A stretch of 64,000 nt of DNA from an uncultured virus (IMG/VR IMGVR_UViG_3300008954_002234) (taxonomy: Duplodnaviria; Heunggongvirae; Uroviricota; Caudoviricetes). Below the pieces are notes generated by a model that was not told the DNA's origin, did no database searches, and worked only from the letters and a program-made list of their open reading frames with translations. Within the stretch, counting starts at the first letter, position 1; each line of letters starts with the position of its first letter. The position numbers and the translations under genes were made by a program. Of the stretch, positions 1,500 through 53,106 are shown piece by piece. The stretch is from IMG/VR virus record IMGVR_UViG_3300008954_002234; one strand, given 5' to 3'.

Positions 1500-2372
1500 C
1501 TAATTAGACAGCCAATCTAATACATGAATAGTAGGTCTCCAATCAAGATTTTTTTTAATTTTTGATATATTTCCGCGAACAGAAAAAGCTTCTGCTTTTT
1601 TGGGGAGACGATTAATTTTTCCGCCTGTACCACAAATAGCTAAAGCTATGTCGTTAATAGAGGTGCATTCACCGTAAGCGACGTTAAAAACATCGCCATT
1701 ATGTTCGGAATTGTACTCTCCTGCTAAAATAGTTGCATTTATAACGTCATCAACATGTACGAAATCCCTTTCGTTCTCCCCTGAACCAAAAATTGTCAAA
1801 AATTTGTTATTTCTATGTTGGTTCTTAAGGATCGGCACGACTCCTTCTTCGGTTCCGGGGCCAAAAATGTTAAAATACCTTAAACAGGCAGTATCTAAGC
1901 CATAGTATTTAGAATATAGTTTGCAATATTTTTCTACTGTTAATTTTTGAAGTCCATAAGGACTCAAAGGCTCCGTTGGAGAAGTCTCTTCGTAAGAATC
2001 CAACTCGCTATCGCCATACACAGCTGAACTAGAAGCAAAGACGAAACGCTTAACTCCAGCCTCTCTGCAAAGTTCTAACAAATTGAGGGAGCCGACAACA
2101 TTTGTGTTATGATAGGCAATAACACGATCATGTGAAGCCTGCAAATCCTTTTTCGCGGCTAGGTGATAAACTATATCAACTCCTTCAATAATACTTCTTA
2201 ATTTTGTTAAATGTCCATAATTACAAATATCTAAGCAAAGATATTCTTGTTCAAGAAATTTCTTCTCATCAATTGTGTTATCTATGCTAATTACATCATG
2301 CCCCGCGTCATTTAGTTTTTTAACTAAGTGCGTTCCTATAAACCCAGCGCCGCCTGTAACTAATACTCTCAT
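1500..2372 (-). CDS. NAD-dependent sugar epimerase/dehydratase (extended SDR)
   Basis: VTGGAGFIG, SSSAVYG, YGLQK (YxxxK), LRYFNIFGP. Confidence 0.9.
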   Translation of the reverse strand: MRVLVTGGAGFIGTHLVKKLNDAGHDVISIDNTIDEKKFLEQEYLCLDICNYGHLTKLRSIIEGVDIVYHLAAKKDLQASHDRVIAYHNTNVVGSLNLLELCREAGVKRFVFASSSAVYGDSELDSYEETSPTEPLSPYGLQKLTVEKYCKLYSKYYGLDTACLRYFNIFGPGTEEGVVPILKNQHRNNKFLTIFGSGENERDFVHVDDVINATILAGEYNSEHNGDVFNVAYGECTSINDIALAICGTGGKINRLPKKAEAFSVRGNISKIKKNLDWRPTIHVLDWLSN

Positions 2373-2980
2373 TTTAAAAAATACCAAGTCGAAAAGAAAG
2401 ATTCTGTTGTTGTTTTAAGACCGTAACCGTGTTCTTCGACAAATTCATCAACAGCGGGGTTAACCCCAAATACTCCAACATATGCACCACGGAAATAAAT
2501 ATATTTGTCTTTTCCATTAGGGTGAAAGTGTGGGTCAAGGAACCAATCTTTCAGAGATCTAAGGTAGTCGTGCCCAGCTATCAGCCCTCCTTTTTTTACT
2601 TTAGGAAACCATAGCTGTATATCTTTCTTAGCTCCTTCATAAGAGTGGTCTCCATCTATATATATAAAATCTAGAGAATTATCTTCAAAAAGATCTACTG
2701 CTTGATGAGAAAGCGCTCGTATCATGATAGCTCTATCCTCTACCCCTTTTAAAACCTCTGTAGCTTTCAACATAACTTTGGGTGTTACTACGTCGTTGGT
2801 TGAACCTTCGACATCTGAGCCTTTCTCCGGTTCTCTCCAAGGGTCCACCAAGTAAAGGGTTCCCTCCCAGTTATCGAGAATATGTCTTGCGTATCTTCCA
2901 GCATACGAGCCTATCTCTACGCCTTTACCTGTTAAGCCGAGTGCATTCAACAAATCACATATTTCTTTTCTGTCTTTCAT
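2369..2980 (-). CDS. Class I SAM-dependent methyltransferase (Methyltransf_24-like)
   Basis: VEIGSYAG, LDFIYIDGDHSY, KKGGLIAGHDY. Confidence 0.85.
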   Translation of the reverse strand: MKDRKEICDLLNALGLTGKGVEIGSYAGRYARHILDNWEGTLYLVDPWREPEKGSDVEGSTNDVVTPKVMLKATEVLKGVEDRAIMIRALSHQAVDLFEDNSLDFIYIDGDHSYEGAKKDIQLWFPKVKKGGLIAGHDYLRSLKDWFLDPHFHPNGKDKYIYFRGAYVGVFGVNPAVDEFVEEHGYGLKTTTESFFSTWYFLK

Positions 2981-4563
2981 TATTTGTAAATATAATAATC
3001 TTCAAGCACTACTGCATCTAGTTGTGTTGAATCAAGTATCTCAATAGCTGTTAAGTAACGAGTAAGTATTGCCTTTCCTCTACTATTAAATGATGTGTTT
3101 ACAAGTACTGGTATGTTTGTTATTTTTTCAAACTCATCCAATACATTATAAATAAATTCATTATCTTTTTTTGTAACTGTTTGTAGTCTTGAAGAACCGT
3201 CTATGTGTGTCACAGCAGGTAATACTTTTTTATATTCTTCTCGAACAGGAGGACTGAAAGACATATATTTGTAGCATGCGTTTTTCGAAGTCTCAAAATA
3301 GTGAGAGGCTTTTTCCTCTTTGCATATAGGAGCGAACGGGCGGAACCATTCTCTAAATTTAACTTTACTGTTTATAGTATCTTTAGCCCGATGACTCCTT
3401 GGGTCTGCCAATATACTTCTGTTTCCTAATGCCCTTGGTCCTGTTTCGCTGTCTCCTCGACATACGCCGATTATTTTACCTTTCTCTAGCTCTGAAGCTA
3501 TAAGCTCTGGCGTTGCCTGTTTCCAAGGTCTATGATCTAAAATAAAAGGTAGAGCTCCTTTATCTAAAACCTGACAACCACTATACATGACCTCAGGAAC
3601 AATTTGACTTTTAAGATATCCAGTAATCATACCATAAGACAACCCACTGTCTCCGGGAGAACAGGGCACGAAGAAGTTTGTATCTGGATAAGTTTTAGAG
3701 AGCCTCTCATTTAAAATTACATTTAAAGCAGCGCCTCCTGTAAGACATACATTCTTATGTTTCTTATGGTCAAAGAAATCTACAAATGTTTCAAGGAAGC
3801 ATACCTCGAAAGCAAGTTGTACATTATATGCAAAATCATACGATTGCTTGCCTTCAAATTGGTTATATCTAAATTCTCCAAAGTTTTCTAAAAAGACAGC
3901 GTCGATTCCTTCTTTACCAGACTTAAAGTAAGGCATTATGCGATTAAAGAAGTCTTCGTTATAAGAGCCATATGCAGATAGTCCCATAATTTTACCAGCA
4001 CCTCCAAGTTCAGACGCCAAATCCCCTTCTCTCTTGCTAATCTCAGAATTAAAAGAGCTTAGCTTGGCGTATTTGGTTGGGTAAGGAGTAAATTGATAGT
4101 TATTGATCTGTCTGAAGTCTGGATTTTCCTTATTTACCTCATAAACGCAGAATGTACCGTCGTTTCCGCTTCCATCATAGCTGAAAATCAAAGCCTCATC
4201 GAAGCCACTAGAGTAAAACGCTCCTGCTGCATGGGATCTATGGTGATAAGTGTAATCATTTTGGAAGTTGACCTCTTTTATACCGAAAAAATTAATCATA
4301 AACTCGACAAGTTCCGGTGGGCACCACCATTCAAATAAACCCACATCATAACTAGTACGAAAAACACCTTTTTCCTTCAGGATTTCAACAAGATAAGTGC
4401 AAAAATCATGATATTGGCCCTCTCCTATCAACCTTCTCATGGAAAAATACCTATTACCAAAGATTCTTTCCAGTTCTATAGTATAAATAGCGTCTCCATT
4501 CAGGCAAATAGACAGATTTGCGTCGTGACTACCAGAAAAAAAACTAAAAATAGACTTATCCAT
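2980..4563 (-). CDS. O-carbamoyltransferase (NodU/CmcH/TobZ family)
   Basis: SHDA, HHRSHAA, DGSG, GGAALNV, GPRALGNRSILADP, KFREWFRPFAP, NTSFN. Confidence 0.92.
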   Translation of the reverse strand: MDKSIFSFFSGSHDANLSICLNGDAIYTIELERIFGNRYFSMRRLIGEGQYHDFCTYLVEILKEKGVFRTSYDVGLFEWWCPPELVEFMINFFGIKEVNFQNDYTYHHRSHAAGAFYSSGFDEALIFSYDGSGNDGTFCVYEVNKENPDFRQINNYQFTPYPTKYAKLSSFNSEISKREGDLASELGGAGKIMGLSAYGSYNEDFFNRIMPYFKSGKEGIDAVFLENFGEFRYNQFEGKQSYDFAYNVQLAFEVCFLETFVDFFDHKKHKNVCLTGGAALNVILNERLSKTYPDTNFFVPCSPGDSGLSYGMITGYLKSQIVPEVMYSGCQVLDKGALPFILDHRPWKQATPELIASELEKGKIIGVCRGDSETGPRALGNRSILADPRSHRAKDTINSKVKFREWFRPFAPICKEEKASHYFETSKNACYKYMSFSPPVREEYKKVLPAVTHIDGSSRLQTVTKKDNEFIYNVLDEFEKITNIPVLVNTSFNSRGKAILTRYLTAIEILDSTQLDAVVLEDYYIYK

Positions 4564-4903
4564 AGATTCTTACCTTAAATTTGTCTCCTAAATCCCTAAT
4601 AAATGAGTGCGTCCAGTAACTCCATGTGTTATCGAACCTAACGGGAAGAAAATCTGTACTAAGTACTATAGTATCAGCAAAAAAAACAGTCTTTATTTTT
4701 TTTATTTTAATATTTTCTGCTGACTGATTATATGGAAGGTTTATTCTTAGCCATCCATTGTTGTTATCAGAAAAAAAAGGTTTATCGAAGAGATTAAGTT
4801 TGTCATATATAAGAAAAGGCTTCTTATCTATCACTTTTATCTCACCAATAAGCGATATGTCTTGTTCTCTTTTTAAGAACTCAAAAGTATCCTTCATCTC
4901 CAA
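4556..4903 (-). CDS. Hypothetical protein
   Basis: ORF overlaps both neighbours within the operon. Confidence 0.5.
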   Translation of the reverse strand: MEMKDTFEFLKREQDISLIGEIKVIDKKPFLIYDKLNLFDKPFFSDNNNGWLRINLPYNQSAENIKIKKIKTVFFADTIVLSTDFLPVRFDNTWSYWTHSFIRDLGDKFKVRIYG

Positions 4904-5553
4904 TATTCTTTAACAAACTCGTGGTCTCTTAGCTCATGTTGTTTTTTGTCACTTTTACTTAATTCAATAAAATGACAAAATTTATTATCTTTATGCACAT
5001 CTATTCTTTTCTTGAAATGAGGTACGTATTTAGAAAACCATTCTTTAGGGAAAGTCTTATGTTTATGCTCTCCTAATTTCAAAAGTTTAGTCATAAATCT
5101 ATCAACTCCTCCTTCATGGTACAAGTTTTTATCGGCAATAAATTTATCCCACATGTAGTGATGTTTGTCTGGATTAAATTTTACAACGCAATCGTTATAT
5201 TCATTATTTCCATATAAGCCATTAGGAACCATGTATAGCTCGTCGTCCAATTCAAACAGCTCGTCTATGTCGTTATGTATTACTACATCTAAGTCGATGT
5301 TTATACAAGGCCCCGAAAGTACACCTTTTTTAAATAGCGACAGCCTGTTCCACCAGTGATTTAGTCTTTCTTCTGGTATTGGCCTTACGTCAATGTAAGT
5401 TTTTATTCCTCTTGAGTCTTCAGTAAAGCAAACAAAATTAAAATTATAAGAAGTATTTCTTTTTACCATTGAATACAGTCTGTTCACATATTCAGAAGAG
5501 TATTTATCTCCTATTTTGAAGCAAACTATATTTAATTTGTAGGATTTAAGCAC
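4894..5553 (-). CDS. Putative glycosyltransferase (GT-A, DxD)
   Basis: KIGDKYSSEYVNRLYSMVKRN, WWNRLSLF, IDLDVVI. Confidence 0.75.
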   Translation of the reverse strand: MLKSYKLNIVCFKIGDKYSSEYVNRLYSMVKRNTSYNFNFVCFTEDSRGIKTYIDVRPIPEERLNHWWNRLSLFKKGVLSGPCINIDLDVVIHNDIDELFELDDELYMVPNGLYGNNEYNDCVVKFNPDKHHYMWDKFIADKNLYHEGGVDRFMTKLLKLGEHKHKTFPKEWFSKYVPHFKKRIDVHKDNKFCHFIELSKSDKKQHELRDHEFVKEYWR

Positions 5554-12957: not shown

Positions 12958-13012
12958 GGAAGAAAAAAAAAGTCTTGACATTCTGTATTTTTTGTGTTAT
13001 GATAGATATCAA

Positions 13013-13132
13013 GTGAGTGAGAAAAGAAAACCTGTTATTCGAAAGCGTGTTAAATGGAACACAGGCGAACGCGTACACAAACCCAAGAAGGGCAAGGGCT
13101 CCTATGAACGCAAAAAAAGGTTTGACAAGTAA
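13013..13132 (+). CDS. ArfA-like (alternative ribosome-rescue factor A-like) 39-aa peptide (not in ORF track)
   Basis: MSEKRKPVIRKRVKWNTGERVHKPKKGKGSYERKKRFDK contains the ArfA signature KKGKGSYxRK; own promoter at 12975. Confidence 0.65.
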   Translation: MSEKRKPVIRKRVKWNTGERVHKPKKGKGSYERKKRFDK

Positions 13133-13159
13133 CGCTAAATGTGCTATACTTTCCCCGCG

Positions 13160-13789
13160 ATGAACATGACTATTAAACTTGCACAAGAAAGGGTTGGCTC
13201 ATTGAGCAGCCCATCAAAGATGCCCGGCTACGGGTACAGTACGCCAGCCGAAGATTGTATCACAGGCTCCAAGCTGGCCGAGGTCGTTAATTCAATTTGT
13301 TCTTTTTGCTACGCTCGAAAGGGCCGCTATGTTTTCTCTAATGTGAAGAAGGCCATGAAAAAGCGATTGAAAGCCCTTCAACGCCTCGACTGGGTTGACA
13401 TGATGGTTTTCCTCATTGGTAAAAAAGAAAAGAGCGGCTTTTTTCGCTGGCACGACAGCGGCGATATTCAAGGCATTTGGCATTTAGAAAAGATTGCCGA
13501 AGTTGCAAGGCGATTGCCCCATATTCAATTCTGGCTGCCAACCCGTGAGTACCGCATAGTGCGCGAATGGATGGAGCTAGGACGCAAGCCTGATAACCTA
13601 ACTATTCGGTTGTCTGCTTACATGATGGACGGCAAGCCGCCCGTGATCGCAAAGGCTCTTGGTTTACCGACCAGCGGCGTATCAAATGACAGTTTTTCCT
13701 GTCCTGCGCCAAGCCAAGGCAATGAGTGCAAAGACTGCCGAGCCTGTTGGGATGAAACGGTCGAAAATATCAACTACAAAAAACATTGA
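13160..13789 (+). CDS. GP88-like phage protein
   Basis: SKMPG, C..GSKL..SICSFCYARKG, FRWHDSGD, FWLPTRE, CPAPSQGNECKDCRACW. Confidence 0.8.
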   Translation: MNMTIKLAQERVGSLSSPSKMPGYGYSTPAEDCITGSKLAEVVNSICSFCYARKGRYVFSNVKKAMKKRLKALQRLDWVDMMVFLIGKKEKSGFFRWHDSGDIQGIWHLEKIAEVARRLPHIQFWLPTREYRIVREWMELGRKPDNLTIRLSAYMMDGKPPVIAKALGLPTSGVSNDSFSCPAPSQGNECKDCRACWDETVENINYKKH

Positions 13790-13820
13790 CAATCGAATAA
13801 GCTTGCTGTATCATAATAGA

Positions 13821-13892
13821 ATGAGTGCCGTACTAATTTTGTTGTTGGTGTTTACGATTTACTGGTGGAATCAATATTCAAAAAGAGATTGA
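13821..13892 (+). CDS. 23-aa single-TM peptide
   Basis: MSAVLILLLVFTIYWWNQYSKRD; ATG 6 nt after the -10 box of promoter 13786. Confidence 0.45.
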   Translation: MSAVLILLLVFTIYWWNQYSKRD

Positions 13893-13975
13893 AGAAAAGA
13901 CTTGACTTTAGTGCTAAAATATGCAATAATACTCTCATCGCTGCTAGGGAAAGCAGCAACTAAAAACTAAAACAA

Positions 13976-14407
13976 ATGTTTGGCGAAAAAATAAACTATA
14001 CTCGGCAGGTTCTCAGCGAGAACGACTGGATAATCGGCATGGAAGGTGATAACCGCGAGGAAATCACCGCACGCTTCAACGCATTCTGGAACTGGATGGC
14101 AACCAACGGTGAGCTAGACTGGCGCACCGACAAGCTCGCCGTGTTCTGGACTGACGAAAAACGATTCAACAAGGCCGTTCTGGACATATACAGGAACCGC
14201 CTCCGACAGGATTTAGGCGATGACCTAAAGGGAGTCAAGAATGGCGCAGACTTCTTGGCCATAGACGAAGCCAAGCAATTCGTCGAGTCAATTCAGGACA
14301 CGACCGAACTGTTCACGCACAAGATGCGAACGGTGGAGCTTGACCCATACGAAGAACTGCAGATTTCAGCCGAAGACCTCAGCGACTGGGACGCCGTAAA
14401 GGCGTGA
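13976..14407 (+). CDS. Hypothetical early protein
   Basis: 143-aa ORF downstream of promoter 13902. Confidence 0.7.
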   Translation: MFGEKINYTRQVLSENDWIIGMEGDNREEITARFNAFWNWMATNGELDWRTDKLAVFWTDEKRFNKAVLDIYRNRLRQDLGDDLKGVKNGADFLAIDEAKQFVESIQDTTELFTHKMRTVELDPYEELQISAEDLSDWDAVKA

Positions 14408-14414
14408 TGCTTTT

Positions 14415-14511
14415 CTGAACCCGTCCGGGTGCAGTGGCCATGGTGATCAGGGAGATCCTGATACAGGTGGATCGGTTCAGCCTCCTCATGAAACAGCCGC
14501 ACGTGCCCGGA
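14415..14511 (+). ncRNA. Three-stem RNA motif, copy Y (unnamed)
   Basis: P1-CATGGTG-P2(GAGAT loop)-AC-P3-NN-TGAAACA-P1'; covaries with the copy at 16153-16229. Confidence 0.7.
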
Positions 14512-14514
14512 ATA

Positions 14515-14548
14515 CGAGGGGGGAGCTCTTCCCCCCTCGCTTTTTTTT
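14515..14548 (+). terminator. Intrinsic terminator
   Basis: CGAGGGGGGAG-CTC-TTCCCCCCTCG followed by T8. Confidence 0.88.
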
Positions 14549-14552
14549 ACCT

Positions 14553-14628
14553 GTAAGTCTTTGGTAATCAGTAAGTTACGGCGGCGGCCTCCCCCCCGCG
14601 CGTAAGTCTCTGAGTACCAATGAGTTAC
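14553..14628 (+). repeat. 76-bp bipartite element, copy 8
   Basis: GTAAGTCTTTGGTAATCAGTAAGTTAC / ggcggcggcctcccccccgcgc / GTAAGTCTCTGAGTACCAATGAGTTAC. Confidence 0.92.
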
Positions 14629-14666
14629 GCCTCCCATTTCATGAGAGGCGTGTCAAGCTTTTATTT

Positions 14667-14698
14667 GAGGGGAGGTGGGGAAGCCCCCACCTCCCTCC
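14667..14698 (-). terminator. Terminator-like hairpin at the convergence point
   Basis: GGGAGGTGGGG-AAG-CCCCCACCTCCC just after the DUF932 stop; no clear U-tail on -. Confidence 0.55.
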
Positions 14699-14703
14699 TA
14701 CCA

Positions 14704-15591
14704 TTACGATGCTACTAGCACATCGTCCGACTTGACTACTGGCTTGCGAGTGAGCTTGCCGAAGAACGTCTTGTCCTTTGCTGCCTTGGTCAACTTCTTG
14801 AGAACAGTCTCGCTGACCTTGCTCGCGTACTCGTAACGGTCATTCTGAACAGCCGCACGATTCTTACCGCTCGACAAATGCTGAGTGGTCGCGTTGTACA
14901 AGTTGTACAGATTGCGAGCCTCGTCCTCTTTGTAAGTAGGATTGAACCAGATTTTGGTAATCTCCTCACGCAGAGAGTTGCTCAACACCTTTGAATCACG
15001 AAGATTCTTGAGAATATAATCTCCGATGGTGTTGTCAATCTTGGTCTCAGCCAATAGAGCATAGTCCTCGCCGATTGTCTCGAACGCTGTCACCGCAGAG
15101 TCAATAGCCCTAGACACTCCACTCAAGTCTAGCTTGCTGGAATGCTTTTGGTTGAAGCTATACGTCGAGCGTAAAGCCTTCATACCATTAGTGCATATCT
15201 GACGCAACGCTGCCAAGTCCAAACCCGCAAAGCAGGAACGGTCATAGGAATTGCGTCCTGTGATACGCATACCAACGGTATCACCTACGCCCGGAATGAC
15301 TATATTCTTTCCGGGTAGGTCATACGTTGCGTACATGGTAGCACCATCGCGTGCCACCTTAACATCCTTGGTATAGTCCAAACCTTTGTCAGTTAAAACT
15401 GACTCGATTGAATTAACCAATGTAGAGTTTAGCAACAAGCCATACTTGTCACTCGTTACACCTAGCACTTGGCCGGTGTCTGTCCTGCGCGTTCCCCAGA
15501 AGCCAGCATCGCTGCCGTCTTGAGTCCGCAGTTGCTCCATAACTACAGGGAAATCGTAGTTACCGCTCGTTGGTCTAGTAGTTCTTGCCAT
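14704..15591 (-). CDS. DUF932 family phage/plasmid protein
   Basis: RTDTGQVLGVTSDKY, RNSYDRS, RQICTNGM, KHS. Confidence 0.85.
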   Translation of the reverse strand: MARTTRPTSGNYDFPVVMEQLRTQDGSDAGFWGTRRTDTGQVLGVTSDKYGLLLNSTLVNSIESVLTDKGLDYTKDVKVARDGATMYATYDLPGKNIVIPGVGDTVGMRITGRNSYDRSCFAGLDLAALRQICTNGMKALRSTYSFNQKHSSKLDLSGVSRAIDSAVTAFETIGEDYALLAETKIDNTIGDYILKNLRDSKVLSNSLREEITKIWFNPTYKEDEARNLYNLYNATTQHLSSGKNRAAVQNDRYEYASKVSETVLKKLTKAAKDKTFFGKLTRKPVVKSDDVLVAS

Positions 15592-15627
15592 AACGTCTTT
15601 TTATCTTAACACTTACTGTTTTGAAAG

Positions 15628-15873
15628 TCAAGCCCAAAGTTGAGCCCAGCCTTCTGGACTGTAACCACTGGCGACAAACTCTCTGTCGTCAGCATTCAAC
15701 GACTTCAAAGCAACCTGAAGCAGCTCTCCCTGATTCAGATCCCATAATTCATGGCCGGGTATCGTAACACTGTAAGGTTTACCTGTCTTTTTACAGGGGC
15801 CTGTAAAGGTGTACGTATGCTCTGGCTCGTAAGCCTCTGTGTAGGTGCAATTGGTATGTATATAACGTCCCAT
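15628..15873 (-). CDS. Hypothetical early protein
   Basis: Own promoter (TTGACA at 15912-15907, TATACT); L.ADDREF..SG.SP..W motif. Confidence 0.65.
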   Translation of the reverse strand: MGRYIHTNCTYTEAYEPEHTYTFTGPCKKTGKPYSVTIPGHELWDLNQGELLQVALKSLNADDREFVASGYSPEGWAQLWA

Positions 15874-15929
15874 AACTTAAATGAGTATAACACAAACTGC
15901 CCTCAATGTCAACCCTAAAAAGTAACACG

Positions 15930-16005
15930 ATAAGTCATTGAGTATCAAGGACTTAAGGCGCGGGGGGAGGTGCGCGCCGTAACTCATTGACTGTCAGTGA
16001 CTTAT
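15930..16005 (-). repeat. 76-bp bipartite element, copy 9 (inverted)
   Basis: ATAAGTCATTGAGTATCAAGGACTTAA / ggcgcggggggaggtgcgcgcc / GTAACTCATTGACTGTCAGTGACTTAT; the spacer is C-rich on the - strand. Confidence 0.92.
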
Positions 16006-16078
16006 AAACCTTAAAATCTTATGATATAATCGAAAAGCCCTTTATTTGCCTTATTTGCGAAAAATGGGGAAAATGGGC

Positions 16079-16109
16079 GAAAAAAAATACCCCCGCCGAA
16101 GCGGGGGTA
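16079..16109 (-). terminator. Intrinsic terminator
   Basis: On -: TACCCCCGC-TTCG-GCGGGGGTA followed by a T-run. Confidence 0.9.
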
Positions 16110-16152
16110 AGTGAATGAACTATCTCAACTACTACTGAGGGGGGAAAGAGGG

Positions 16153-16229
16153 GGAGAACTCCGGTGTTTCACTAGGGTAACCTACAAACCCCGTCCGCGC
16201 ATCTCGCGCAGCACCATGCCGAAGTCTCC
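16153..16229 (-). ncRNA. Three-stem RNA motif, copy X (unnamed)
   Basis: On -: GGAGACTTCGG-CATGGTG-CTGCGC-GAGAT-GCGCGG-AC-GGGGT-TTGTAGGTT-ACCCT-AG-TGAAACA-CCGGAGTTCTCC. Confidence 0.7.
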
Positions 16230-16235
16230 TATCCG

Positions 16236-16430
16236 CTAACTACGGCGTTTCGTAGTGCGGCGAGCGGCCTTTGGGCCGTTCATTGAAGCGGCGAATGCCG
16301 CCTTATCAACCGTCTCGTATGAGTGAGAGTGTTGATTGATCTTGACCAACTGTTCAGCGGTCACAACTTTCAGGTCTCCGCCGGTCTGGCGTTGAACCTC
16401 CAACCGATATGTATGATTACGCATACCCAT
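16236..16430 (-). CDS. Hypothetical early protein
   Basis: Downstream of a TTGACT-17-TAAGAT promoter near 16510. Confidence 0.6.
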   Translation of the reverse strand: MGMRNHTYRLEVQRQTGGDLKVVTAEQLVKINQHSHSYETVDKAAFAASMNGPKAARRTTKRRS

Positions 16431-16505
16431 AATTTATTCGTCTGTTTTTTTTGTCTGGGCCGTTCCCTGACTACTTCTTAATCTTATCACTAACTGCCGC
16501 GAAAG

Positions 16506-17435
16506 TCAAGCAATTAATTTCAAATAATCCAAACCTTTTGCTGTTATGTTTCTTCCAGCGGTTGTTATCTCCATTAAGCTATGCTTTTGCAAGTAAATTT
16601 CAAAATCTCTTTGAATTGCTGCTTTGCTGATACCAGTTTTTGCAGACAAATTAGTAAGACTACAATCTTTGTGATCTTTTAATATGTTTAGCAACTGGAT
16701 TTCAGTAACATTTAAACCAAGTGGAAAGATGTTTAATATCCTACTCAATTCTTTCCAATGAGTTGAATTAAATCTTTTAACTTTTTTCTGGCCACAATAA
16801 GACACAATTTTATGAGCCATTTTTTGTGCTGCTCGCGCATTGCCCCGCAATACAGATGCAATATCTTGTAATGTTTTTGGATCAATGTCTATGTCGAGGT
16901 TCAGAGCAACTATCTGCCCCATCTCCTCAATAGAGTATTCCTCAAGGTCAACACGCTCCAGCCTGTCCATCAAGGCATGGAATACGGATTGAGTTTCGGT
17001 TGTGGCGAACATGAACGATAGCCGACTAAAATCAAAGTCAACTGTATAATCCTCGAAAGAGAATGATGTCATGTTTTCGGAGTTAGGATTGAGGATGGTC
17101 AGCATAGCCATCGAAACATCCTTGGGAATCTCGCTTGCCTCATCAAAGAGGATGGTAGCGTCCCTGTCCTGCATCAACGGAATAACCAACTGATTAAAGA
17201 ACTGCTTTACATTCTTAATCGTAGAACAGTTAATCTCAAAGTACCGTTTGGCATCGTCAATACTTTTAAGTGTACGCGCAACTGCCTTCGCCATCGTTGT
17301 CTTGCCGCAACCCTTGGGCGCGACAAACATGAGGTGAGGCATAACCGAGGTAGCCTTGAACCCTCCAATATGGAAATCCAGTACGCGCTTCGCGCTTTCT
17401 TGCCCGATTATGTCGGGGAATGTAGTCGTATCCAT
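16506..17435 (-). CDS. ruvB: RuvB-like AAA+ ATPase
   Basis: FPDIIGQ, Walker A APKGCGKT, Walker B ILFDEA, ATTE, LMDRL, RGNAR, C-terminal winged helix ending GRNITAKG. Confidence 0.8.
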   Translation of the reverse strand: MDTTTFPDIIGQESAKRVLDFHIGGFKATSVMPHLMFVAPKGCGKTTMAKAVARTLKSIDDAKRYFEINCSTIKNVKQFFNQLVIPLMQDRDATILFDEASEIPKDVSMAMLTILNPNSENMTSFSFEDYTVDFDFSRLSFMFATTETQSVFHALMDRLERVDLEEYSIEEMGQIVALNLDIDIDPKTLQDIASVLRGNARAAQKMAHKIVSYCGQKKVKRFNSTHWKELSRILNIFPLGLNVTEIQLLNILKDHKDCSLTNLSAKTGISKAAIQRDFEIYLQKHSLMEITTAGRNITAKGLDYLKLIA

Positions 17436-17459
17436 CAGTCTATCTTAACAGTTACTTGA

Positions 17460-17726
17460 TTAAAAGTCAATACTTTTTACTGCTACCTTGCTTTCTTCTT
17501 CAAGGGCAGTCTCTTTCACTTCAACTGGCGCGGCGGCAGACACATTCGCATAATTAGATATGATACGATTGCCTGTCTGAAGTCCGAGTTGCTCGGCGTA
17601 CTTCCTTCCAACCATAACGATAGCGTCCTCGCGCAAGACACGGTTAAGCTCTCGTAGGTTGACTTCGATGAGGCTTGTCGCGCCTTTAGTGCGGCCCGAT
17701 CCTTTCTTTCTAGTCATCGTTGACAT
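17460..17726 (-). CDS. Hypothetical protein
   Basis: ATG 6 nt after TATTAT of a TTGACA-17 promoter; RKKGSGRTKGATS N-terminus. Confidence 0.6.
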   Translation of the reverse strand: MSTMTRKKGSGRTKGATSLIEVNLRELNRVLREDAIVMVGRKYAEQLGLQTGNRIISNYANVSAAAPVEVKETALEEESKVAVKSIDF

Positions 17727-18142: not shown

Positions 18143-18217
18143 TGGACGCGAGGGTCGGAATCGAACCGACGAGTAAGAGTTTTGCAGACTCCCGCCTTAC
18201 CACTTGGCTACCCCGCG
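18143..18217 (-). tRNA. tRNA-Cys (GCA)
   Basis: Cloverleaf, anticodon loop CTGCAAA, GGTTCGATTCC T-arm, U73, encoded CCA. Confidence 0.93.
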
Positions 18218-29084: not shown

Positions 29085-29531
29085 TCATAGGTACTGCAAA
29101 TTTAGTTGGCCTGTTATCTTATCAATTAGCGATGTTGTAGATTTCCCTTTTGTAAGGCTTAGTAGCTTAACTGTTCCTCCGTTCTTTTCTACTGTAAGCT
29201 TCTCCCTTGTGGCCACGGGGCATTTCTTTTCCCAATTACCTGAGTAGTCTCCACCTTTCACATAAATATCTGGTTTTATTGATTCTAAAAAAATACAAGC
29301 GTCCGTTTCATCAAATATTCGAACCTCATCTACCCACCTTATAGCCTCAAGGACAGCCTTTCTGTCTTTTTCGTTATTTATAGGGCGAGTAGAACCTTTT
29401 AATTCCCTGACTGATCGGTCGCTGTTGCACCCAACGATGAGGCGGTCTCCAAGCTCTCTGGCTTCTCGCAAAAAAGAAACATGACCAGCGTGAATCAAGT
29501 CAAAGCACCCGTTTGTCGCTATAACCTTCAT
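29085..29531 (-). CDS. rfaE2: HldE/RfaE domain II heptose-1-phosphate adenylyltransferase
   Basis: TNGCFDLIHAGH, NSDRSVRELKG..RPIN, YVKGGDY, STT. Confidence 0.9.
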   Translation of the reverse strand: MKVIATNGCFDLIHAGHVSFLREARELGDRLIVGCNSDRSVRELKGSTRPINNEKDRKAVLEAIRWVDEVRIFDETDACIFLESIKPDIYVKGGDYSGNWEKKCPVATREKLTVEKNGGTVKLLSLTKGKSTTSLIDKITGQLNLQYL

Positions 29532-29706
29532 TAGAATATTAAACTCCCTGCATCAGACTGACGATACTGTGAGCGTGGCTTTCTTCTATTTAAGTCTCTT
29601 GCTATGGCATCCGCAATACCTTCTCTAGCGGCCTCGCTATCAAAGTTTATTTGCTTGTTTTCTTTTTGTATCTTATTGAGTATATCAATTATTTCTCTCT
29701 TTAATT

Positions 29707-30066
29707 TCATCTCTTACCTCCAAAATATTCTGTGGCGTGTCCTTCTTTAACTAGAATATCATTAAAGCTATCAAATGAGTCTACTTCTTTGAATAGAGTT
29801 CCAAGTAGCCTGCCGAACTTGCCTTTCTTATCTATTCTAGTCTCAACTATAAACTCATTCTTATTTTCTTTTATGAGTTCTTTGAGTCTTGCTTTGGCTG
29901 CTAGACCTAGCTTCTTTTCTTCTTTGTCTCTAGTCCTACACTCTGGCGTGTTGATACCGTATAAGCGAATACGCTCTTTCTTAAAGGTGCTAAACCCACA
30001 ATCAATTAGCGCATCTACTGTATCGCCGTCTACTACTCTTATTAATTTTGCTTTATATTGATACAT
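29707..30066 (-). CDS. Thermonuclease (SNase-like)
   Basis: RVVDGDTVD, RIRLYGINTPE, GKFGRLLG. Confidence 0.88.
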   Translation of the reverse strand: MYQYKAKLIRVVDGDTVDALIDCGFSTFKKERIRLYGINTPECRTRDKEEKKLGLAAKARLKELIKENKNEFIVETRIDKKGKFGRLLGTLFKEVDSFDSFNDILVKEGHATEYFGGKR

Positions 30067-31045
30067 TTTGTATTTTTCTTTTTATATCTTGTGAATGATA
30101 ATCTTTTGTCTCGTCTAATAAAAATAATCTATGCTCTTCCATAGCCTCTGAATACCAAGTTTTTAAAAAACTTTCGTGAGCATTACCGTGAACAATATAA
30201 TCTATATTATTTGCCTCCATCCAATCAATAGTTGTTATAGAGCCTTCTGCTGGTAGTATTACTTCATCAACATATTTACAAGCTTCAATAATTTCTACTC
30301 TTTCTTCGTAAGAGAATATAGGCGGCTCCTTGTAAGTTTTTACTATCTCGTCTGGTGTAACGGCGACCACAACTTTATCAAATATATCTCTCATTTTTCG
30401 AAGTAAGCGAACATGGCCTTTGTGGTACAAGTCAAAGACCCCCTCTGTATACCCTGTGATTGGGTCTCTATACCCGTAGGACTTTATGTCTCCTTCCCAG
30501 TTGCCAACTTCTCTGGCTGCAACAACTTTTGTTCTCCAATCCACCCCCATACCCCCAACATCTTTATAAACATAATCTAAATACTTTTCAGCATACTTGG
30601 ATATTAAGAACTCAAAACCTTCAAATTGTATGGTTTTAAGATTTTGTTGATAGTAAGCTTTACTGCGAAAGGCTCTTTTGTAGTTTGAGGGTGCACTTCT
30701 TATACCCATACCTCCCCAACCATGGTTATCGTTAGTATTAAAACAGTATATATCTATCTTAAACTCCTCTTCGTTTTCGTTGTTAGTTATGGTTAAGAAT
30801 TTTCCTCCAGAAAAACAGTTAATAAAATTATATTTATAGCTATAAGACGGGCCTTCTTCCATGACAGACTCCAGACTTGACCAGTCTTTTTCCCATACCC
30901 CCATGTCGATGTCGTCATCTCCCTCCGGTATCCCTCCATCTCTTATTGCTCCGAGAGCGGAGCCGTACTCAAGCCAGATATCTATATTATTTGAACGAAG
31001 TTCTTTAGAAATATAATGGCATATATGCGCAGCTTTTTTATTCAT
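30053..31045 (-). CDS. LicD-like phosphotransferase fused to a cytidylyltransferase
   Basis: N-terminal GSALGAIRDGG..DDDIDMG; C-terminal GVFDLYHKGH..ER..CKYVDEV..IVHG. Confidence 0.8.
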   Translation of the reverse strand: MNKKAAHICHYISKELRSNNIDIWLEYGSALGAIRDGGIPEGDDDIDMGVWEKDWSSLESVMEEGPSYSYKYNFINCFSGGKFLTITNNENEEEFKIDIYCFNTNDNHGWGGMGIRSAPSNYKRAFRSKAYYQQNLKTIQFEGFEFLISKYAEKYLDYVYKDVGGMGVDWRTKVVAAREVGNWEGDIKSYGYRDPITGYTEGVFDLYHKGHVRLLRKMRDIFDKVVVAVTPDEIVKTYKEPPIFSYEERVEIIEACKYVDEVILPAEGSITTIDWMEANNIDYIVHGNAHESFLKTWYSEAMEEHRLFLLDETKDYHSQDIKRKIQNVSI

Positions 31046-31047
31046 AA

Positions 31048-31593
31048 CTACTTAAAATGTGGGCCGAAGAAGAAGCCTCGCAGCCAACGCTTACTACCTT
31101 TTGTAACTGGGGTTACTCCGCTTATCATATACGAAGGGAAAAATAAGCAAGTCCCAAGCTCTTTATTTGCGTAGACAGGAGTACCGCTATTATGTATAAG
31201 GTGTTCTCCGCCTTCGTAATCTTCGGGCTTAGACAGGCAGATATGAAAACTGATCTTGCTGTATTGCTTGCGATCATCAAAGAAGTTTCGTGCTATGTCC
31301 GATCTTGGAGTATACGAATTTTTCTCTGTAAAAGACTCAAGTATCAATGGATCAGAGATTCCATTTATATTAAACTTCCAAGAGTCATTATTTGCTTCTC
31401 TTACAAAATCACATAGCCTGTTATAAATCCAAAAATTATTATCAGTGAAGTCTACTAGGTTAGACTCCTTGTTCTCTCTAGTTATTTTTAAGCATTCTTC
31501 TTCTGAGAATGCTTTATCAAAAATATAATAATCGTTTAGTTTTAAGTTATTATCTTCTCGTTCTAATGAATCTATGTCAGCTAAATAATACAT
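31048..31593 (-). CDS. 2OG-Fe(II) oxygenase-like protein with degenerate metal ligands
   Basis: KIS..LS.PEDYEGG, FPSY..VTPVTKG.KR fold motifs, but both His ligands are replaced. Confidence 0.7.
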   Translation of the reverse strand: MYYLADIDSLEREDNNLKLNDYYIFDKAFSEEECLKITRENKESNLVDFTDNNFWIYNRLCDFVREANNDSWKFNINGISDPLILESFTEKNSYTPRSDIARNFFDDRKQYSKISFHICLSKPEDYEGGEHLIHNSGTPVYANKELGTCLFFPSYMISGVTPVTKGSKRWLRGFFFGPHFK

Positions 31594-31594
31594 A

Positions 31595-31780
31595 TTAGCA
31601 TTCCTTTACATCTTCTAACTCTGCAAGTTCTACGACCTCTTTGGCTAATCTCTTAGTCATCCTTGGGCAGTCTTCTTCTATTGCTTGTTTTTTCCAAAGC
31701 GGGTATTCTTTATAAATCTTTTCGTAGGCAGCTTCGTACCTTCTCCCCATATCAGACTTTACCTTTTTCTTTCTAGGCAT
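31595..31780 (-). CDS. Hypothetical protein
   Basis: ATG 6 nt after TATAAT of a TTGACG-17 promoter. Confidence 0.6.
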   Translation of the reverse strand: MPRKKKVKSDMGRRYEAAYEKIYKEYPLWKKQAIEEDCPRMTKRLAKEVVELAELEDVKEC

Positions 31781-31811
31781 ATACTTATTATATCAAAAAC
31801 TTAATTAAACG

Positions 31812-32885
31812 TCAACTCTTTTGTTTTTTTGATAATGCTTTTTCGTGCTGTTGTGTAGCTTTTGAATCGTCGTGCATCCAGTTCTCGTCAGTATTCCAAT
31901 TGCCATCTTCATCTTGGTATGGATTATTAAAATCATTTAAAGCTTTTTTTCTTGAGTCAAACTTATGTACGCTGTGATAAGAGCTTTCTTTACAGTCAGG
32001 TTGATCTGGTTTTTTTATTTCGATAGGGCTATCGGACATAGAGTGTAGATCTAGATTTTCTTTAAACCGTAAAGAAGTATCAAACGTATTGGCTCCCTTG
32101 TAATATTCGTCAGCATGGGTTTTGTCATCTTGACCGCCTAATACACTACTAACCCATGTAACCCAAGGGTTATTTAAAACCTCTTTTGCGTTGTACTTGC
32201 CGCCATTCCAATTAAGCACACCTTTTCTAAATATTCTACTGAAAAACAATCTCAACTTCATATTTGGTCTCTGCATTAAATGATAATTTATTATACTTTC
32301 GACAGGGTGAATTAAACATTCGCTATAATATTTTCTTAATTTTAAAAAAGCAGAACAATAATAGTCCATTATATAAGGAGGCCCAAAAGCAACCCAGTTG
32401 TTTAAATTTACTGTATTATAGTTGCCTAGGTTATATACATGATGCCAGTAGGGTATACTTAAGGCGTCTTCATTAACTATATTCAAGTCTGGGTACGAAC
32501 TACAGACCTCGGCTCTAACTATAACGTCGTAGTCTCCGGCGGACGCCATTAGGTTCGCTCTCCATATTTTATATAACATTGAATACACTCTGCCGTTTTT
32601 CTGGGCAAAGTGCATAGCTTGATTAAAGTATTTAGGAGAAGATTCGTATTCTTCGTTTATCGAGGCGAAGCTTCGGTCAAAAGCTTTTTGGTTCTCTACT
32701 TCTAGTTCTTTAGGCTTGTAGGCTTCGACAAATGATTTTATAGTGTCTCCTTCTTGATATACATTTTCTTCGTCCCAAAGGCTAGCAAAAACATCGGCAT
32801 CGTATTTCTTAATTATTTGTTGCCAGTATCTTTGGTTTTGTTTTACATAATATGGTAGCCCTGCAAAGCAAATCGCAACTTTCAT
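31812..32885 (-). CDS. Putative glycan-modifying protein
   Basis: MKVAICFAG, DVFASLW, YDVIVR; similar to 60658..61566. Confidence 0.5.
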   Translation of the reverse strand: MKVAICFAGLPYYVKQNQRYWQQIIKKYDADVFASLWDEENVYQEGDTIKSFVEAYKPKELEVENQKAFDRSFASINEEYESSPKYFNQAMHFAQKNGRVYSMLYKIWRANLMASAGDYDVIVRAEVCSSYPDLNIVNEDALSIPYWHHVYNLGNYNTVNLNNWVAFGPPYIMDYYCSAFLKLRKYYSECLIHPVESIINYHLMQRPNMKLRLFFSRIFRKGVLNWNGGKYNAKEVLNNPWVTWVSSVLGGQDDKTHADEYYKGANTFDTSLRFKENLDLHSMSDSPIEIKKPDQPDCKESSYHSVHKFDSRKKALNDFNNPYQDEDGNWNTDENWMHDDSKATQQHEKALSKKQKS

Positions 32886-33097
32886 TTTTTAAATATCTCC
32901 TCGTAGTTATCTCTATAAACTTGCCTGTTTTTAGTCCTATCGGAATCACCTTTGCCTGCTCCACCTAGATCGCCGCCTTCTTTTACATACTTATATACTT
33001 CATTGCTATAAGTTTCGCTATGCTTCTCTTTAGTAGAAACTTTTTTACCATTTTTATAATACCAACCCTTATTTGTCTTTGGTTTCTTTTTGCTCAT
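32882..33097 (-). CDS. Small phage protein
   Basis: GAGKGD..R..YRDNYEEIF motif. Confidence 0.6.
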   Translation of the reverse strand: MSKKKPKTNKGWYYKNGKKVSTKEKHSETYSNEVYKYVKEGGDLGGAGKGDSDRTKNRQVYRDNYEEIFKK

Positions 33098-33951
33098 ATG
33101 AGCTCTTTTATCTCCTCTACTGTAAACTCTTGAACTTCGTCGGACGCTGGGCCATCTTCAAATATTCTTTCGTGAAGATTCTCTCCCGGTTGGAGACCAA
33201 TAGATTTGATTTTAAGTTCAGCTCCTTTTGGTAAATATTTAGACGCCATTGCTTCTAGAAGATTACCAATACTCATTGACTTCATCTCTGGTAAATAAGG
33301 AACACAGTCGATGGCGTTTTCCATGCAATCGAAAACCAAGTCAACTGCTTGATCTATAGTCCAAAAGAACCTAGTGGCTCCTGCCTCAGTAACTATAACC
33401 TCCTTGCCTTCTTTAAGTAGCTCTCTCCATTTACAGAGAACTGATCCTGTTGAGTATAAAACATTACCGTATCGGACTGTGCGAAATTTAATCTCTGGGA
33501 AATCTTTCTCAAACTGAGCAAAAAGCCTTTCCATTATTAGCTTTGAGGCTCCATAAACTCCCTTGACTTGCGCCGCCTTGTCTGTACTAATACCTAGAAC
33601 AAATTCTACTCCTGTGTCTACTGCGTGCTCTAGCATATTCAAAGAACCCACTACATTTGATAGAGTACATTCTCTAGCTTGAGTCTCTGCTAAGCCAACG
33701 TGCTTGAATGCAGCTAGATGGAATATACCTTGAATGTCTGTGAATCTTTTCAAGGTAAATTTGTCAGCTATATCTCCAGTGTAATATTCAATATCTGGAA
33801 AGCTTTGCTTAGTTTTTATTAAACCGACTTCACTTCTAGCTACTACTATGACTTTGCCGCCTTCGTCTAGTATTCTTTTGATAAGCTCCTCCCCTAGAAA
33901 ACCGCTGCCTCCGGTTACTAAATATTTTTTATTCTGTTTTATTTTAATCAT
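33094..33951 (-). CDS. Polysaccharide biosynthesis dehydratase (CapD/PseB-like)
   Basis: TGGSGFLG, HLAAFKHV, ISTDKA, YGASK, VRYGNV..STGSV, TRFF, GL.PGE.LHE. Confidence 0.88.
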   Translation of the reverse strand: MIKIKQNKKYLVTGGSGFLGEELIKRILDEGGKVIVVARSEVGLIKTKQSFPDIEYYTGDIADKFTLKRFTDIQGIFHLAAFKHVGLAETQARECTLSNVVGSLNMLEHAVDTGVEFVLGISTDKAAQVKGVYGASKLIMERLFAQFEKDFPEIKFRTVRYGNVLYSTGSVLCKWRELLKEGKEVIVTEAGATRFFWTIDQAVDLVFDCMENAIDCVPYLPEMKSMSIGNLLEAMASKYLPKGAELKIKSIGLQPGENLHERIFEDGPASDEVQEFTVEEIKELI

Positions 33952-35602
33952 TGCCTACCAATCCCATGTATAAGTGAGCTTCTATTTTCCTTGCTAAAAT
34001 ATGCCATATTCTGTGCCTAGGAACCCAAACTAAATTTATTCTGTCTCCTATCTGGTTTCGCATCTTCCAGCTTTGAGTAAAACTTCTTATTGATTTATCA
34101 ACAATTTGACCGTATTCCTCAAACTTTTGTTCGTTTAAAAGAGTTTCGTCGTTAATCATGAAAAAAAATGGTATGTTTTTGTTTATGCACTCCATAGCAT
34201 CTTTTTTTCTAAATACGATTAAAACATCAGGGTTCCGAGGCCAGCTTTCTAAGACTCTTGATGCTGCGGCTTGGTGGCCTCTGCACTCTAGCTCTCCAGA
34301 AAGATCCTTTACAAAGTCAAACGTATAGTGATCTGCGTCGCCTCCCCAATAGAGAGTTATTAACAAAGAGTCTTTGGATTCTGTTAATTTTTCTAAAGAC
34401 TCGTAATCAATCATATTTTTATCAACAGTGTGTTTATACCAGTCGGAGCCTGTCCACTCGCTACTTCTCATTTCATTTATGCAATACTTTTGCTGACTGG
34501 GATACTCATCTAGTAGTATTTGTTTTCTTTCTGTTAGTAATTTTTCTTTTGAATTTTTGTAAATATATATCTTATCTTTTGGGAAAATGTCTTTCACTAG
34601 ATCATGTGTTTCCACATGTTGTATGTGCCCGTATTCTCCATATTGATTGTGAGTCACTATTTGTTGCCAGTCTGTTTCTCGGTTAATTCTTTTTAAAACA
34701 TTTTTATAATCATCTCTGTATTGAAGAGGGTCTAAAGTAGGAGTTTCCATGCCTAAGCATTCAAAGTATTTCACTCCAGCTCTTTTCATGCAATTTTGAA
34801 ACTCATAATACCTAGTCTCATGCTTTTCCTTGTGCCATACATCATAGTCCATTGAGGCTGTCAACGAAACCACTTTGGTTTCATATGCGTTTTCAAGTAA
34901 CCAGTCGCCAAAAAATATAGCTTCGTCATCTGGATGAGCTATCACCAAAAGTTTAGTAGGCCTAGGGGGGAGATGAATACCTTTCCAAACAAAAGTTTCA
35001 TCAGAAACAATTTCTAGGTGATTTAGACTTTTGTCCTGTCCTTCTTTTATAACTTTAGGGACAAACTTCCATTTATAGCCAAAATCTCCAGACTCGTTTG
35101 TGTGCTGTCTATTTGAAATTACTTCACCAAAAGTTTTGAGATTTTCCGGCCCCATTAAATCAATATAGTCTACCCATTGATTCTCAATACAATACTCAAC
35201 AAGCTTAGCCCACATCCATTTGGAAACCTCTGCTGTCCTGCAAGAATTAGTGTCGTAAAGCGGAGCATTGCAATATATATAGTTATCCCACTTTAAAACA
35301 AAATGATATGCTATGCCACAACTAAAACATTGTAGTACGCCTCTGTCGTGCAAACTTTGAAGTTCTTTGTCTGAATACCAATCTCCCCAGCTCCAATTGT
35401 TGCATCTAGCCCACAGGTCCATATAGCCCCTGCATTGTTCTGGGTTAAAATCAACTTTACTGTAGTTTAAATCTTTATTAAAGTCTAATGTCTTTTTTAA
35501 GTCCTGTCTGCTAGACTTGGATAGTGAAGACAAATAATCCTCCAAGCTGCTAAACCTAGAGGTGGGGATTATTATAGGGGAACTGTGCTTTAGCACCTTC
35601 AC
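33944..35602 (-). CDS. Multidomain protein with central PIG-L/LmbE deacetylase domain
   Basis: AHPDDE and THN..GEYGH..H; N-terminal region resembles FemAB/GNAT acyltransferases. Confidence 0.65.
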   Translation of the reverse strand: MKVLKHSSPIIIPTSRFSSLEDYLSSLSKSSRQDLKKTLDFNKDLNYSKVDFNPEQCRGYMDLWARCNNWSWGDWYSDKELQSLHDRGVLQCFSCGIAYHFVLKWDNYIYCNAPLYDTNSCRTAEVSKWMWAKLVEYCIENQWVDYIDLMGPENLKTFGEVISNRQHTNESGDFGYKWKFVPKVIKEGQDKSLNHLEIVSDETFVWKGIHLPPRPTKLLVIAHPDDEAIFFGDWLLENAYETKVVSLTASMDYDVWHKEKHETRYYEFQNCMKRAGVKYFECLGMETPTLDPLQYRDDYKNVLKRINRETDWQQIVTHNQYGEYGHIQHVETHDLVKDIFPKDKIYIYKNSKEKLLTERKQILLDEYPSQQKYCINEMRSSEWTGSDWYKHTVDKNMIDYESLEKLTESKDSLLITLYWGGDADHYTFDFVKDLSGELECRGHQAAASRVLESWPRNPDVLIVFRKKDAMECINKNIPFFFMINDETLLNEQKFEEYGQIVDKSIRSFTQSWKMRNQIGDRINLVWVPRHRIWHILARKIEAHLYMGLVGND

Positions 35603-35689
35603 ACAAAAAAATCTTCAGAAAGCTCTCTTGAGGCGTTTTCTGGTTCAATTCTTTCAATCCAGCCAGTAATTATGTATTTGCTTTGTTCT
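35599..35689 (-). pseudogene. Remnant 3' end of a homologous 2OG-Fe(II) oxygenase
   Basis: Translates to KYIITGWIERIEPENASRELSEDFFV*, matching the upstream gene's KYIITGWIESLNEENVSREFPQDYFV*. Confidence 0.8.
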
Positions 35690-37989: not shown

Positions 37990-38066
37990 TGGCACCCCGA
38001 GCTGGACTCGAACCGGCAACCCTCTGCTTAGAAGGCAGATGCTCTATCCAATTGAGCTATCGGGGC
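37990..38066 (-). tRNA. tRNA-Arg (TCT)
   Basis: GCCCCGATAGCTCAATTGGATAGAGC..CTTCTAA..GGTTCGAGTCC..GCCA. Confidence 0.93.
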
Positions 38067-38074
38067 ATAAAATC

Positions 38075-38147
38075 TGGGCCTTGCAGGATTTGAACCTGCG
38101 GCCAATCGATTATGAGTCGACTGCTCTAACCGCTGAGCTAAAGGCCC
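38075..38147 (-). tRNA. tRNA with CAT anticodon, Ile2-type
   Basis: GGGCCTTTAGCTCAGCGGTTAGAGCAGTCGACTCATAATCG..; body resembles bacterial tRNA-Ile2 rather than initiator Met; CCA not encoded. Confidence 0.85.
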
Positions 38148-53102: not shown

Positions 53103-53106
53103 GTTA

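Follow-up and report, generated by a model that had tools for sequence, protein, structure and literature searches.

A covarying three-stem RNA family shared by tailed phages, bacteria and some archaea: a candidate self-processing module

Two copies of a small three-stem RNA motif, here called Y and X, lie in a 64,000-nucleotide stretch of DNA from an uncultured virus of the Caudoviricetes (IMG/VR record IMGVR_UViG_3300008954_002234; the whole stretch is referred to below as the window), and both belong to a large family of such RNAs present in phages, bacteria and some archaea. We regard it as virtually certain that the motif is a real RNA structure maintained by selection. As to what it does, we tentatively favour, at less than even probability, a self-processing (self-cleaving) module, a reading drawn from comparison of sequences. 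It is possible, if doubtful, that the family is a natural class of self-cleaving (catalytic) RNA not seen before or, failing that, the first fold in prokaryotes to block exonucleases. Tailed phages, one ammonia-oxidising archaeal lineage and six or more bacterial phyla would share it, and phages would employ it to set transcript ends by genes and tRNAs.

Structure and covariation of the motif

Copy Y occupies 14424..14511 on the plus strand and copy X 16153..16229 on the minus strand, as delimited by sequence and fold, and the two are the sole matches when the window is scanned with covariance model R1 (58.8 bits, E 1.5e-13, for Y; 62.2 bits, E 1.7e-14, for X). In Y, the closing stem P1 pairs 14424-14438 with 14496-14511, with a small internal loop in the predicted fold, and encloses the junction strand J1/2 (CAUGGUG, 14439-14445), stem P2 (14446-14451 with 14457-14462, loop GAGAU at 14452-14456), junction strand J2/3 (AC, 14463-14464), stem P3 (14465-14470 with 14481-14486, loop 14471-14480), the dinucleotide CA (14487-14488) and finally UGAAACA (14489-14495). 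The corresponding parts of X, read along the minus strand, are P1 (16229-16219 with 16164-16153), CAUGGUG (16218-16212), P2 (16211-16206 with 16200-16195, loop GAGAU at 16205-16201), AC (16194-16193), P3 (16192-16188 with 16178-16174, loop 16187-16179), AG (16173-16172) and UGAAACA (16171-16165). Direct reading of the DNA agrees with the original prediction that four common segments are identical in the two copies while the stems differ and keep their pairing: the Y core (14439-14495) runs CATGGTG, ATCAGG-GAGAT-CCTGAT, AC, AGGTGG-loop-CCTCCT, CA, TGAAACA, and the X core (16218-16165) CATGGTG, CTGCGC-GAGAT-GCGCGG, AC, GGGGT-loop-ACCCT, AG, TGAAACA. G-U or U-G pairs number three in X and one in Y, and there is one U-U mismatch in P3 of Y. 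P1 had also been correctly anticipated, but not at its full length, the stem being longer in both folded copies than first written.

The pattern CATGGTG-N6-GAGAT-N6-AC-N12-42-TGAAACA has two matches in the window, and 100 shuffles yield none. By folding energy alone neither copy stands out (Y, z = 0.18; X, z = -2.2), and the case for structure therefore rests on comparative data. The nearest record, a 42-kb contig, carries both copies at the same coordinates. More widely, the exact pattern occurs at at least 122 loci in viral records, with at least 90 distinct cores, and at 117 loci in cellular contigs (one genome per species); freeing the U of UGAAACA adds at least 119 further viral loci. Some exact-pattern matches are due to chance: those in Komagataeibacter and Novacetimonas (L148, L150, L151, L177 and L178) fall in a conserved stretch in which P2 is unpaired and give no model match, a warning on counts taken from the pattern alone, and those in Bacillus mojavensis (L187) and at L189 and L228 lack the stems and are negative with the covariance model.

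Sequences for alignment were matches with P2 pairing at five or more of its six positions, a selection that carries a slight bias towards P2, and 167 were left after removal of near-duplicates. The resulting alignment, A1, holds 150 distinct rows, comprising 148 relatives together with Y and X; of the 19 sequences left out, 16 have longer P3 stems, two nearly duplicate the copies in the window and one has a poor P1. Across A1, changes on both sides were found in all 23 pairs of P1, P2 and P3; 82.1% of cells pair, against 48.8% after shuffling, a value reached by none of 500 shuffles; and the covariation score is 0.816, compared with 0.216 for shuffled alignments and at most 0.217 when the pairing partners are slid. 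Over the same rows, G-U combinations in the stems outnumber A-C combinations (273 against 88), from which it follows that the fold belongs to the transcribed strand as assigned above. Covariance model R1, which was built from A1, gives 100 matches in 94 loci, tandem and divergent copies among them. The original prediction of a functional structured RNA on these strands is thus borne out by the covariation of all three stems over 150 distinct sequences, by the G-U excess and by the number of viral loci recovered.

These data also bear on the idea that the motif is not an RNA at all, and is instead a DNA repeat, a miniature transposable element or a chance occurrence. P1 does resemble terminal inverted repeats flanking a conserved core. 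However, it varies and covaries around a core that stays constant, the reverse of miniature transposable elements; the G-U excess is specific to one strand; copies are co-oriented with genes; and chance would have to contend with the absence of the pattern from every shuffled sequence. We consider the probability of this explanation negligible.

The consensus is a three-way junction closed by P1, with a core of ~55 nucleotides (nt), or 70-95 nt with P1 included, in which ~20 junction and loop nucleotides are invariant and the stems vary. Four parts are fixed: P1 leads into P2 through AUGGUG, P2 has six base pairs (bp) and a GAGA-N loop, AC joins P2 to P3, and GAAACA precedes the 3' strand of P1. 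The sequence of P1 and of P3 is free, as is the length of P3. J1/2 reads N-AUGGUG, now and then ending in A in divergent copies; P2 is exactly 6 bp long and usually closed by a G-C pair, its loop corresponding to a GNRA-type tetraloop plus one base; J2/3 is AC, rarely GC; and J3/1 is N-GAAACA, with A, C or G in place of U at the viral loci added by the relaxed pattern. The dinucleotide CA precedes UGAAACA in 110 of 184 copies (60%). P3 spans 12-42 nt and has U-rich loops, reaching 12-14 nt at its shortest, P1 mostly comprises 9-15 bp with one interruption counted, and one subfamily carries an additional G and AA beside the junction. A 4-bp CAUG/CAUG helix extending P1 was considered and rejected because the proposed partner stays A-U where U73 is A, C or G (62 of 62 parsed U-variants).

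The original prediction had further noted that GGTTCAG in the P3 loop of Y is complementary to CTGAACC at 14415-14421 (+), and had proposed a pseudoknot with the 5' flank or a scaffold with a variable targeting loop. The complementarity is present in Y, with both 7-mers retained in L022, its one close relative, and P3 loops do differ among copies, including the 16-17 in single archaeal genomes. As a feature of the family, however, it fails: over 183 copies loop-flank complementarity is at shuffled expectation, with an upstream complement of 6 nt or longer in 11 copies against ~14 expected. The two 7-mers are unchanged in Y and L022, and the pair consequently offers no covariation evidence for the pairing. 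P3 can moreover be reduced to 12-14 nt, and the neighbour proteins examined include no guide-using protein. A targeting loop or P3-loop pseudoknot is accordingly highly improbable.

Genomic context and candidate functions

The constancy of the core from phages to archaea, set against neighbouring genes that are not constant, suggests that the RNA most likely acts by itself and not via a dedicated partner gene. Viral neighbours are diverse (helicases, replication initiators, Erf, RusA, SSB, endolysins, terminases, portal proteins and many unknowns), and the neighbour proteins compared, 106 of them bacterial or archaeal and 92 viral, show no recurrent gene partner. We favour self-cleavage, tentatively, because it explains both a universal core with no partner and the positions of the motif between cistrons and at the side of tRNAs. 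In the proposed mechanism P2, being fixed in length, would probably dock its loop onto the junction to give a compact active core; the junction would then catalyse site-specific scission of its own transcript, and the cut would fall between cistrons, beside tRNAs or ahead of a terminator, leaving ends locked in P1. By analogy, the invariant junction, the lack of a gene link, the patchy spread with bursts, the tandem copies, the tRNA adjacency and the co-orientation with genes would all be traits typical of small self-cleaving RNAs.

The positions themselves were compared over 67 unique viral loci with 2.5-kb flanks, gene orientation being given relative to the motif. The genes before and after are oriented (+,+) at 29 loci, (+,-) at 19, (-,+) at 11 and (-,-) at two, and in 22 of the 67 the stop codon of a co-oriented upstream gene lies within 32 nt of the core. 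In the window, each copy was found, as predicted, between a stop codon (14405-14407 on the plus strand for Y, 16236-16238 on the minus strand for X) and an intrinsic terminator, with T8-tailed hairpins downstream. This layout, in which the motif closes a converging unit and comes directly after a stop, is typical of the viral loci, given the 19 with (+,-) neighbours and the 22 closely following a stop. Tandem pairs were found at six loci (L007, L092, L114, L123, L140 and L173).

Such placement could also be read as that of a cis-acting end protector, in which a compact junction stalls processive exonucleases and so stabilises the mRNA or leaves a stable fragment of the untranslated region (UTR). 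The directly post-stop positions, the ends of converging units (a pattern that includes the window), the tandem copies and the ends locked by P1 all agree with this. On the other hand, a plain hairpin suffices for 3' protection and terminators already stand behind both window copies; 183 copies gave no sign of a conserved pseudoknot between motif and flanks; and protection is unneeded for stand-alone copies and those in tRNA arrays. On balance we think an exonuclease block unlikely.

The terminators raise the separate question of a riboswitch-like aptamer governing termination. The junction, with its invariant unpaired bases, is reminiscent of an aptamer, and a terminator follows both window copies, by 3 nt after P1 in the case of Y. 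Across the family, however, a terminator-like site lies within 110 nt downstream in just 16 of 177 copies, which barely differs from the 12 of 177 with one upstream, and we therefore reject a general coupling to terminators. The downstream genes are unrelated or on the opposite strand, and the Y unit runs into converging genes. With neighbours this diverse and terminators this infrequent, the association with a gene class and the expression platform that mark a riboswitch were not found, and this explanation appears very improbable.

Same-strand motifs lie within 40 nt of tRNA genes at eight of 120 loci (L002, L016, L039, L070, L072, L085, L190 and L233). At L233 the motif stands between two tRNAs, its P1 directly following tRNA-Thr and the next tRNA lying 11 nt beyond P1, and at L190 a tRNA begins 4 nt after P1. 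Tested for tRNA-likeness, the motif was never called as a tRNA by ARAGORN in the 120 loci or by the Rfam tRNA model in 20 relatives, though neighbouring tRNAs were called. The tRNA-adjacent and intercistronic positions, together with a P1 of 9-15 bp in most copies, are what might be expected if a host endonuclease (RNase P, III or E) recognised the motif and divided polycistronic transcripts there. Against this stand the occurrence of the same core in bacteria and archaea despite their different RNase sets, the lack of a conserved 3' tail beyond P1 in listings read by eye, and the uniformly negative tRNA calls; we judge a host processing site to be quite improbable.

According to their record titles, bacterial carriers belong to the Acidobacteriota, Verrucomicrobiota, Planctomycetota, Actinomycetota, Myxococcota and Nitrospira, and the bacterial neighbours are mostly prophage-like (RecT, capsid, prohead protease, WhiB, ParB). 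Strains of Terriglobus albidus, Streptomyces indicus and Acidicapsa dinghuensis are among the cultured carriers. Candidatus Udaeobacter carries a single stand-alone copy, near-invariant over eight aligned loci, with a conserved block upstream and conservation that stops at the 3' edge of P1. In archaea the spread is patchy, with carriers numbering one of 151 sampled genomes of the class and four of 15 of the family, and the carrier genomes hold 17, 16, 8 and 4 copies. Taken over the whole family, the motif is enriched in phages. Five thaumarchaeal copies have a TTATTTA-like box 22-30 nt ahead of P1, which from its sequence may be a promoter. Two side observations concern the thaumarchaeal loci. 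At L126, L133, L161, L162, L169, L188 and L201 the motif follows PQQ-dehydrogenase paralogues (nine of ten upstream proteins tested), with a hairpin and T-run between that gene and the motif; and ~60-130 nt upstream of the motif at L161 lies a degenerate tandem copy, retaining CATGGTA and a P2-like hairpin and lacking GAAACA, that looks like a decaying duplicate.

Several of these copies would suit a discrete, stable, tRNA-sized small RNA acting in trans, trimmed to P1 by host nucleases, whose junction and GAGA-N loop would bind a widely conserved partner, be it a small ligand, a protein or another RNA (tRNA or the ribosome, for instance). P1 keeps both ends paired; in arrays the motif occupies a position like that of a tRNA, as at L233 and L190; the Udaeobacter copy stands alone and is conserved just as far as P1; the thaumarchaeal copies have a possible promoter of their own; and the window copies, with a terminator after the motif, are laid out like small RNAs derived from 3' UTRs. 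Yet no recurring candidate partner gene lies nearby, the rarity within the archaeal class would be odd for a universal partner, and many phage copies sit so tightly between a stop and the next start that release would sever the mRNA. We hold a trans-acting small RNA to be a real if minor possibility.

Returning to self-cleavage, several points weigh against it. It is a prediction from sequence comparison, and the stand-alone copies may instead be discrete RNA genes, as the upstream block in Udaeobacter and the TTATTTA-like box in Thaumarchaeota suggest. When the Udaeobacter copy was searched against sequencing runs, 17 runs were listed, five of them recorded as RNA, and contigs of all four soil RNA-library runs cross the middle of the motif, which is unexpected for a fast internal cleaver; this evidence is weak, the contigs being of low depth and the libraries possibly containing DNA. 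Contigs from two studies begin at about the 5' edge of P1, but one of them is loose-ended and the site itself varies between strains, so that they demonstrate neither transcription nor an RNA end. No known ribozyme model in Rfam 15 matches Y, X or 20 relatives, and no known ribozyme was detected within 3 kb of the motif in 20 bacterial loci (6 kb each), where two tRNAs were the only matches. To our knowledge, most orphan motifs assayed for self-cleavage have come out negative.

Comparison with known RNAs

Rfam 15 comprises 4227 models, including twister, twister-sister, pistol, hatchet, hepatitis delta virus (HDV), YrlA and riboswitches. At the gathering threshold the window gives three tRNAs elsewhere and nothing on Y or X, in keeping with the expectation that the motif falls in no Rfam family. 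Relaxing the search of 14300-16400 to E up to 10 produced 15 matches, all far below gathering and none over either junction core; they include a Clostridiales-2 match (15.4 bits, opposite strand) that clips the 3' part of Y, and partial overlaps with X by RsmY (16.1 bits, gathering 57) and ylbH (16.8 bits, opposite strand). Twenty relatives searched at E up to 5 returned neighbouring tRNAs only. A mimic of the 23S ribosomal RNA L1 stalk was also considered and rejected, as model R1 run with filters off on a 23S gene scored at best 8.7 bits, on plain hairpins; compared by eye, the GAGAU pentamer is the sole part that the stalk and the motif share.

The motif resembles small self-cleaving ribozymes (hammerhead, twister, twister-sister, pistol, hatchet, HDV-like) in its size, multi-stem junction and ~20 invariant unpaired bases, and in its patchy presence in phages, bacteria and archaea, with multicopy genomes, intergenic positions and no gene link; unlike them, it is matched by none of their Rfam models even at E up to 10. 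The original prediction that it lacks the hammerhead core holds, Y and X containing no CUGANGA and giving no Rfam hammerhead match, and its junction strands of 7, 2 and 7-9 nt are presumably also unlike those of the hammerhead. The HDV-like 'theta' ribozymes are small structured RNAs beside tRNA genes of tailed phages, on the same strand. The motif is likewise small, structured, found in phages and located beside same-strand tRNA genes, but it lies mostly ahead of or between the tRNAs, no nested pseudoknot was detected in it and no HDV-type model matches. Flaviviral exonuclease-resistant RNAs are three-way junctions of ~70 nt that lie in the 3' UTR just past the stop, sometimes in tandem, and need a pseudoknot at the 5' end. 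They are paralleled by the junction, size, post-stop position and occasional tandem copies of the motif, in which resistance would be predicted at most; there is however no sequence or model similarity, and a 5'-end pseudoknot was not found in 183 copies.

ROOL and GOLLD are orphan phage-linked structured RNAs of hundreds of nt near tRNA genes (PMC12286853); the motif shares with them the status of an orphan structured RNA and ties to phages and tRNA regions, but measures ~55-95 nt and is not matched by their Rfam models. Full-text literature searches found no description of the motif family. A catalogue of 10,006 unnamed viral RNA candidates (PMC10690425) did not contain the motif in its searchable supplements, its large sequence files, where an unnamed listing is possible, lying outside that search. 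PMC10085705 deals with permuted hammerheads, and a string match in bioRxiv 10.1101/2023.03.07.531596 is a coincidence. The family is thus apparently undescribed.

An identical core across phages, bacteria and archaea is rare among structured RNA classes, and earlier such classes (ribozymes, riboswitches, ornate RNAs) each opened a line of biochemistry. Should the motif prove catalytic, it would add to the ribozyme classes and provide a compact new part for self-processing; should it bind a partner, it would point to an unknown RNA-level interaction carried by phages between hosts. With hundreds of members, clean covariation and a core of ~55 nt, the family is well suited to cleavage assays, probing and structure work.

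The surrounding phage genome

Upstream of Y lies an open reading frame (ORF) of 143 amino acids (aa) (13976..14407, +), preceded by a sigma-70-like promoter match (13902-13930, +) and ending 16 nt ahead of P1; a terminator-like hairpin of 11 pairs with a T8 tail (14515..14548, +; hairpin 14515-14539) starts 3 nt after P1. X is preceded by a 64-aa ORF (16236..16430, -), which stops 6 nt ahead of P1 and has a promoter-like match (16509-16481, -) upstream, and is followed 44 nt after P1 by a terminator-like hairpin of nine pairs with a T8 tail (16080..16109, -; hairpin 16109-16088). Both promoter assignments are consensus matches only. The two ORFs belong to no Pfam or PHROG family and have no similarity to each other. 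From its sequence this arrangement suggests two short converging units, each running from a promoter-like site through a small ORF and the motif to a terminator, in which the copy would be the last structured element and so mark the 3' end.

Between 7095 and 16006 the window also contains a palindromic element of ~26 nt, with 17 occurrences at up to three mismatches and none in 100 shuffles, often paired 49 nt apart on either side of a GC-rich hairpin. One such pair lies beyond each motif and terminator (14553-14629 and 15930-16006), and the same arrangement is found downstream of the motif in the viral loci L034, L083 and L103. These elements are probably operator or promoter sites of that gene region.

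Genes in the window include rIIA/rIIB, a clamp loader, a DnaE-type polymerase, UvsX, ribonucleotide reductase and sugar-modification genes. A megablast search of 13000-17500 gave no match, and we find no close cultured relative; polymerase identity is at most 32.5% among the 15 best of 1388 records and below 60% in all 1388. Three tRNA genes identified with Rfam (18146-18217, 37993-38066 and 38075-38147, all on the minus strand) adjoin neither Y nor X. Within 49876-54455 (-), two ORFs of 874 and 255 aa, separated by an exonuclease-subunit ORF and an unknown ORF, match a single phage DNA-polymerase family and may represent a split polymerase; an HNH endonuclease ORF is found at 58231-58713. Finally, sugar-nucleotide epimerases, a carbamoyltransferase, a glycosyltransferase, heptose kinase/adenylyltransferase-like ORFs and 2-oxoglutarate (2OG)-Fe(II) oxygenases are encoded at 1503-5553 and 29088-36373 (-), in clusters that may modify DNA or the cell surface.

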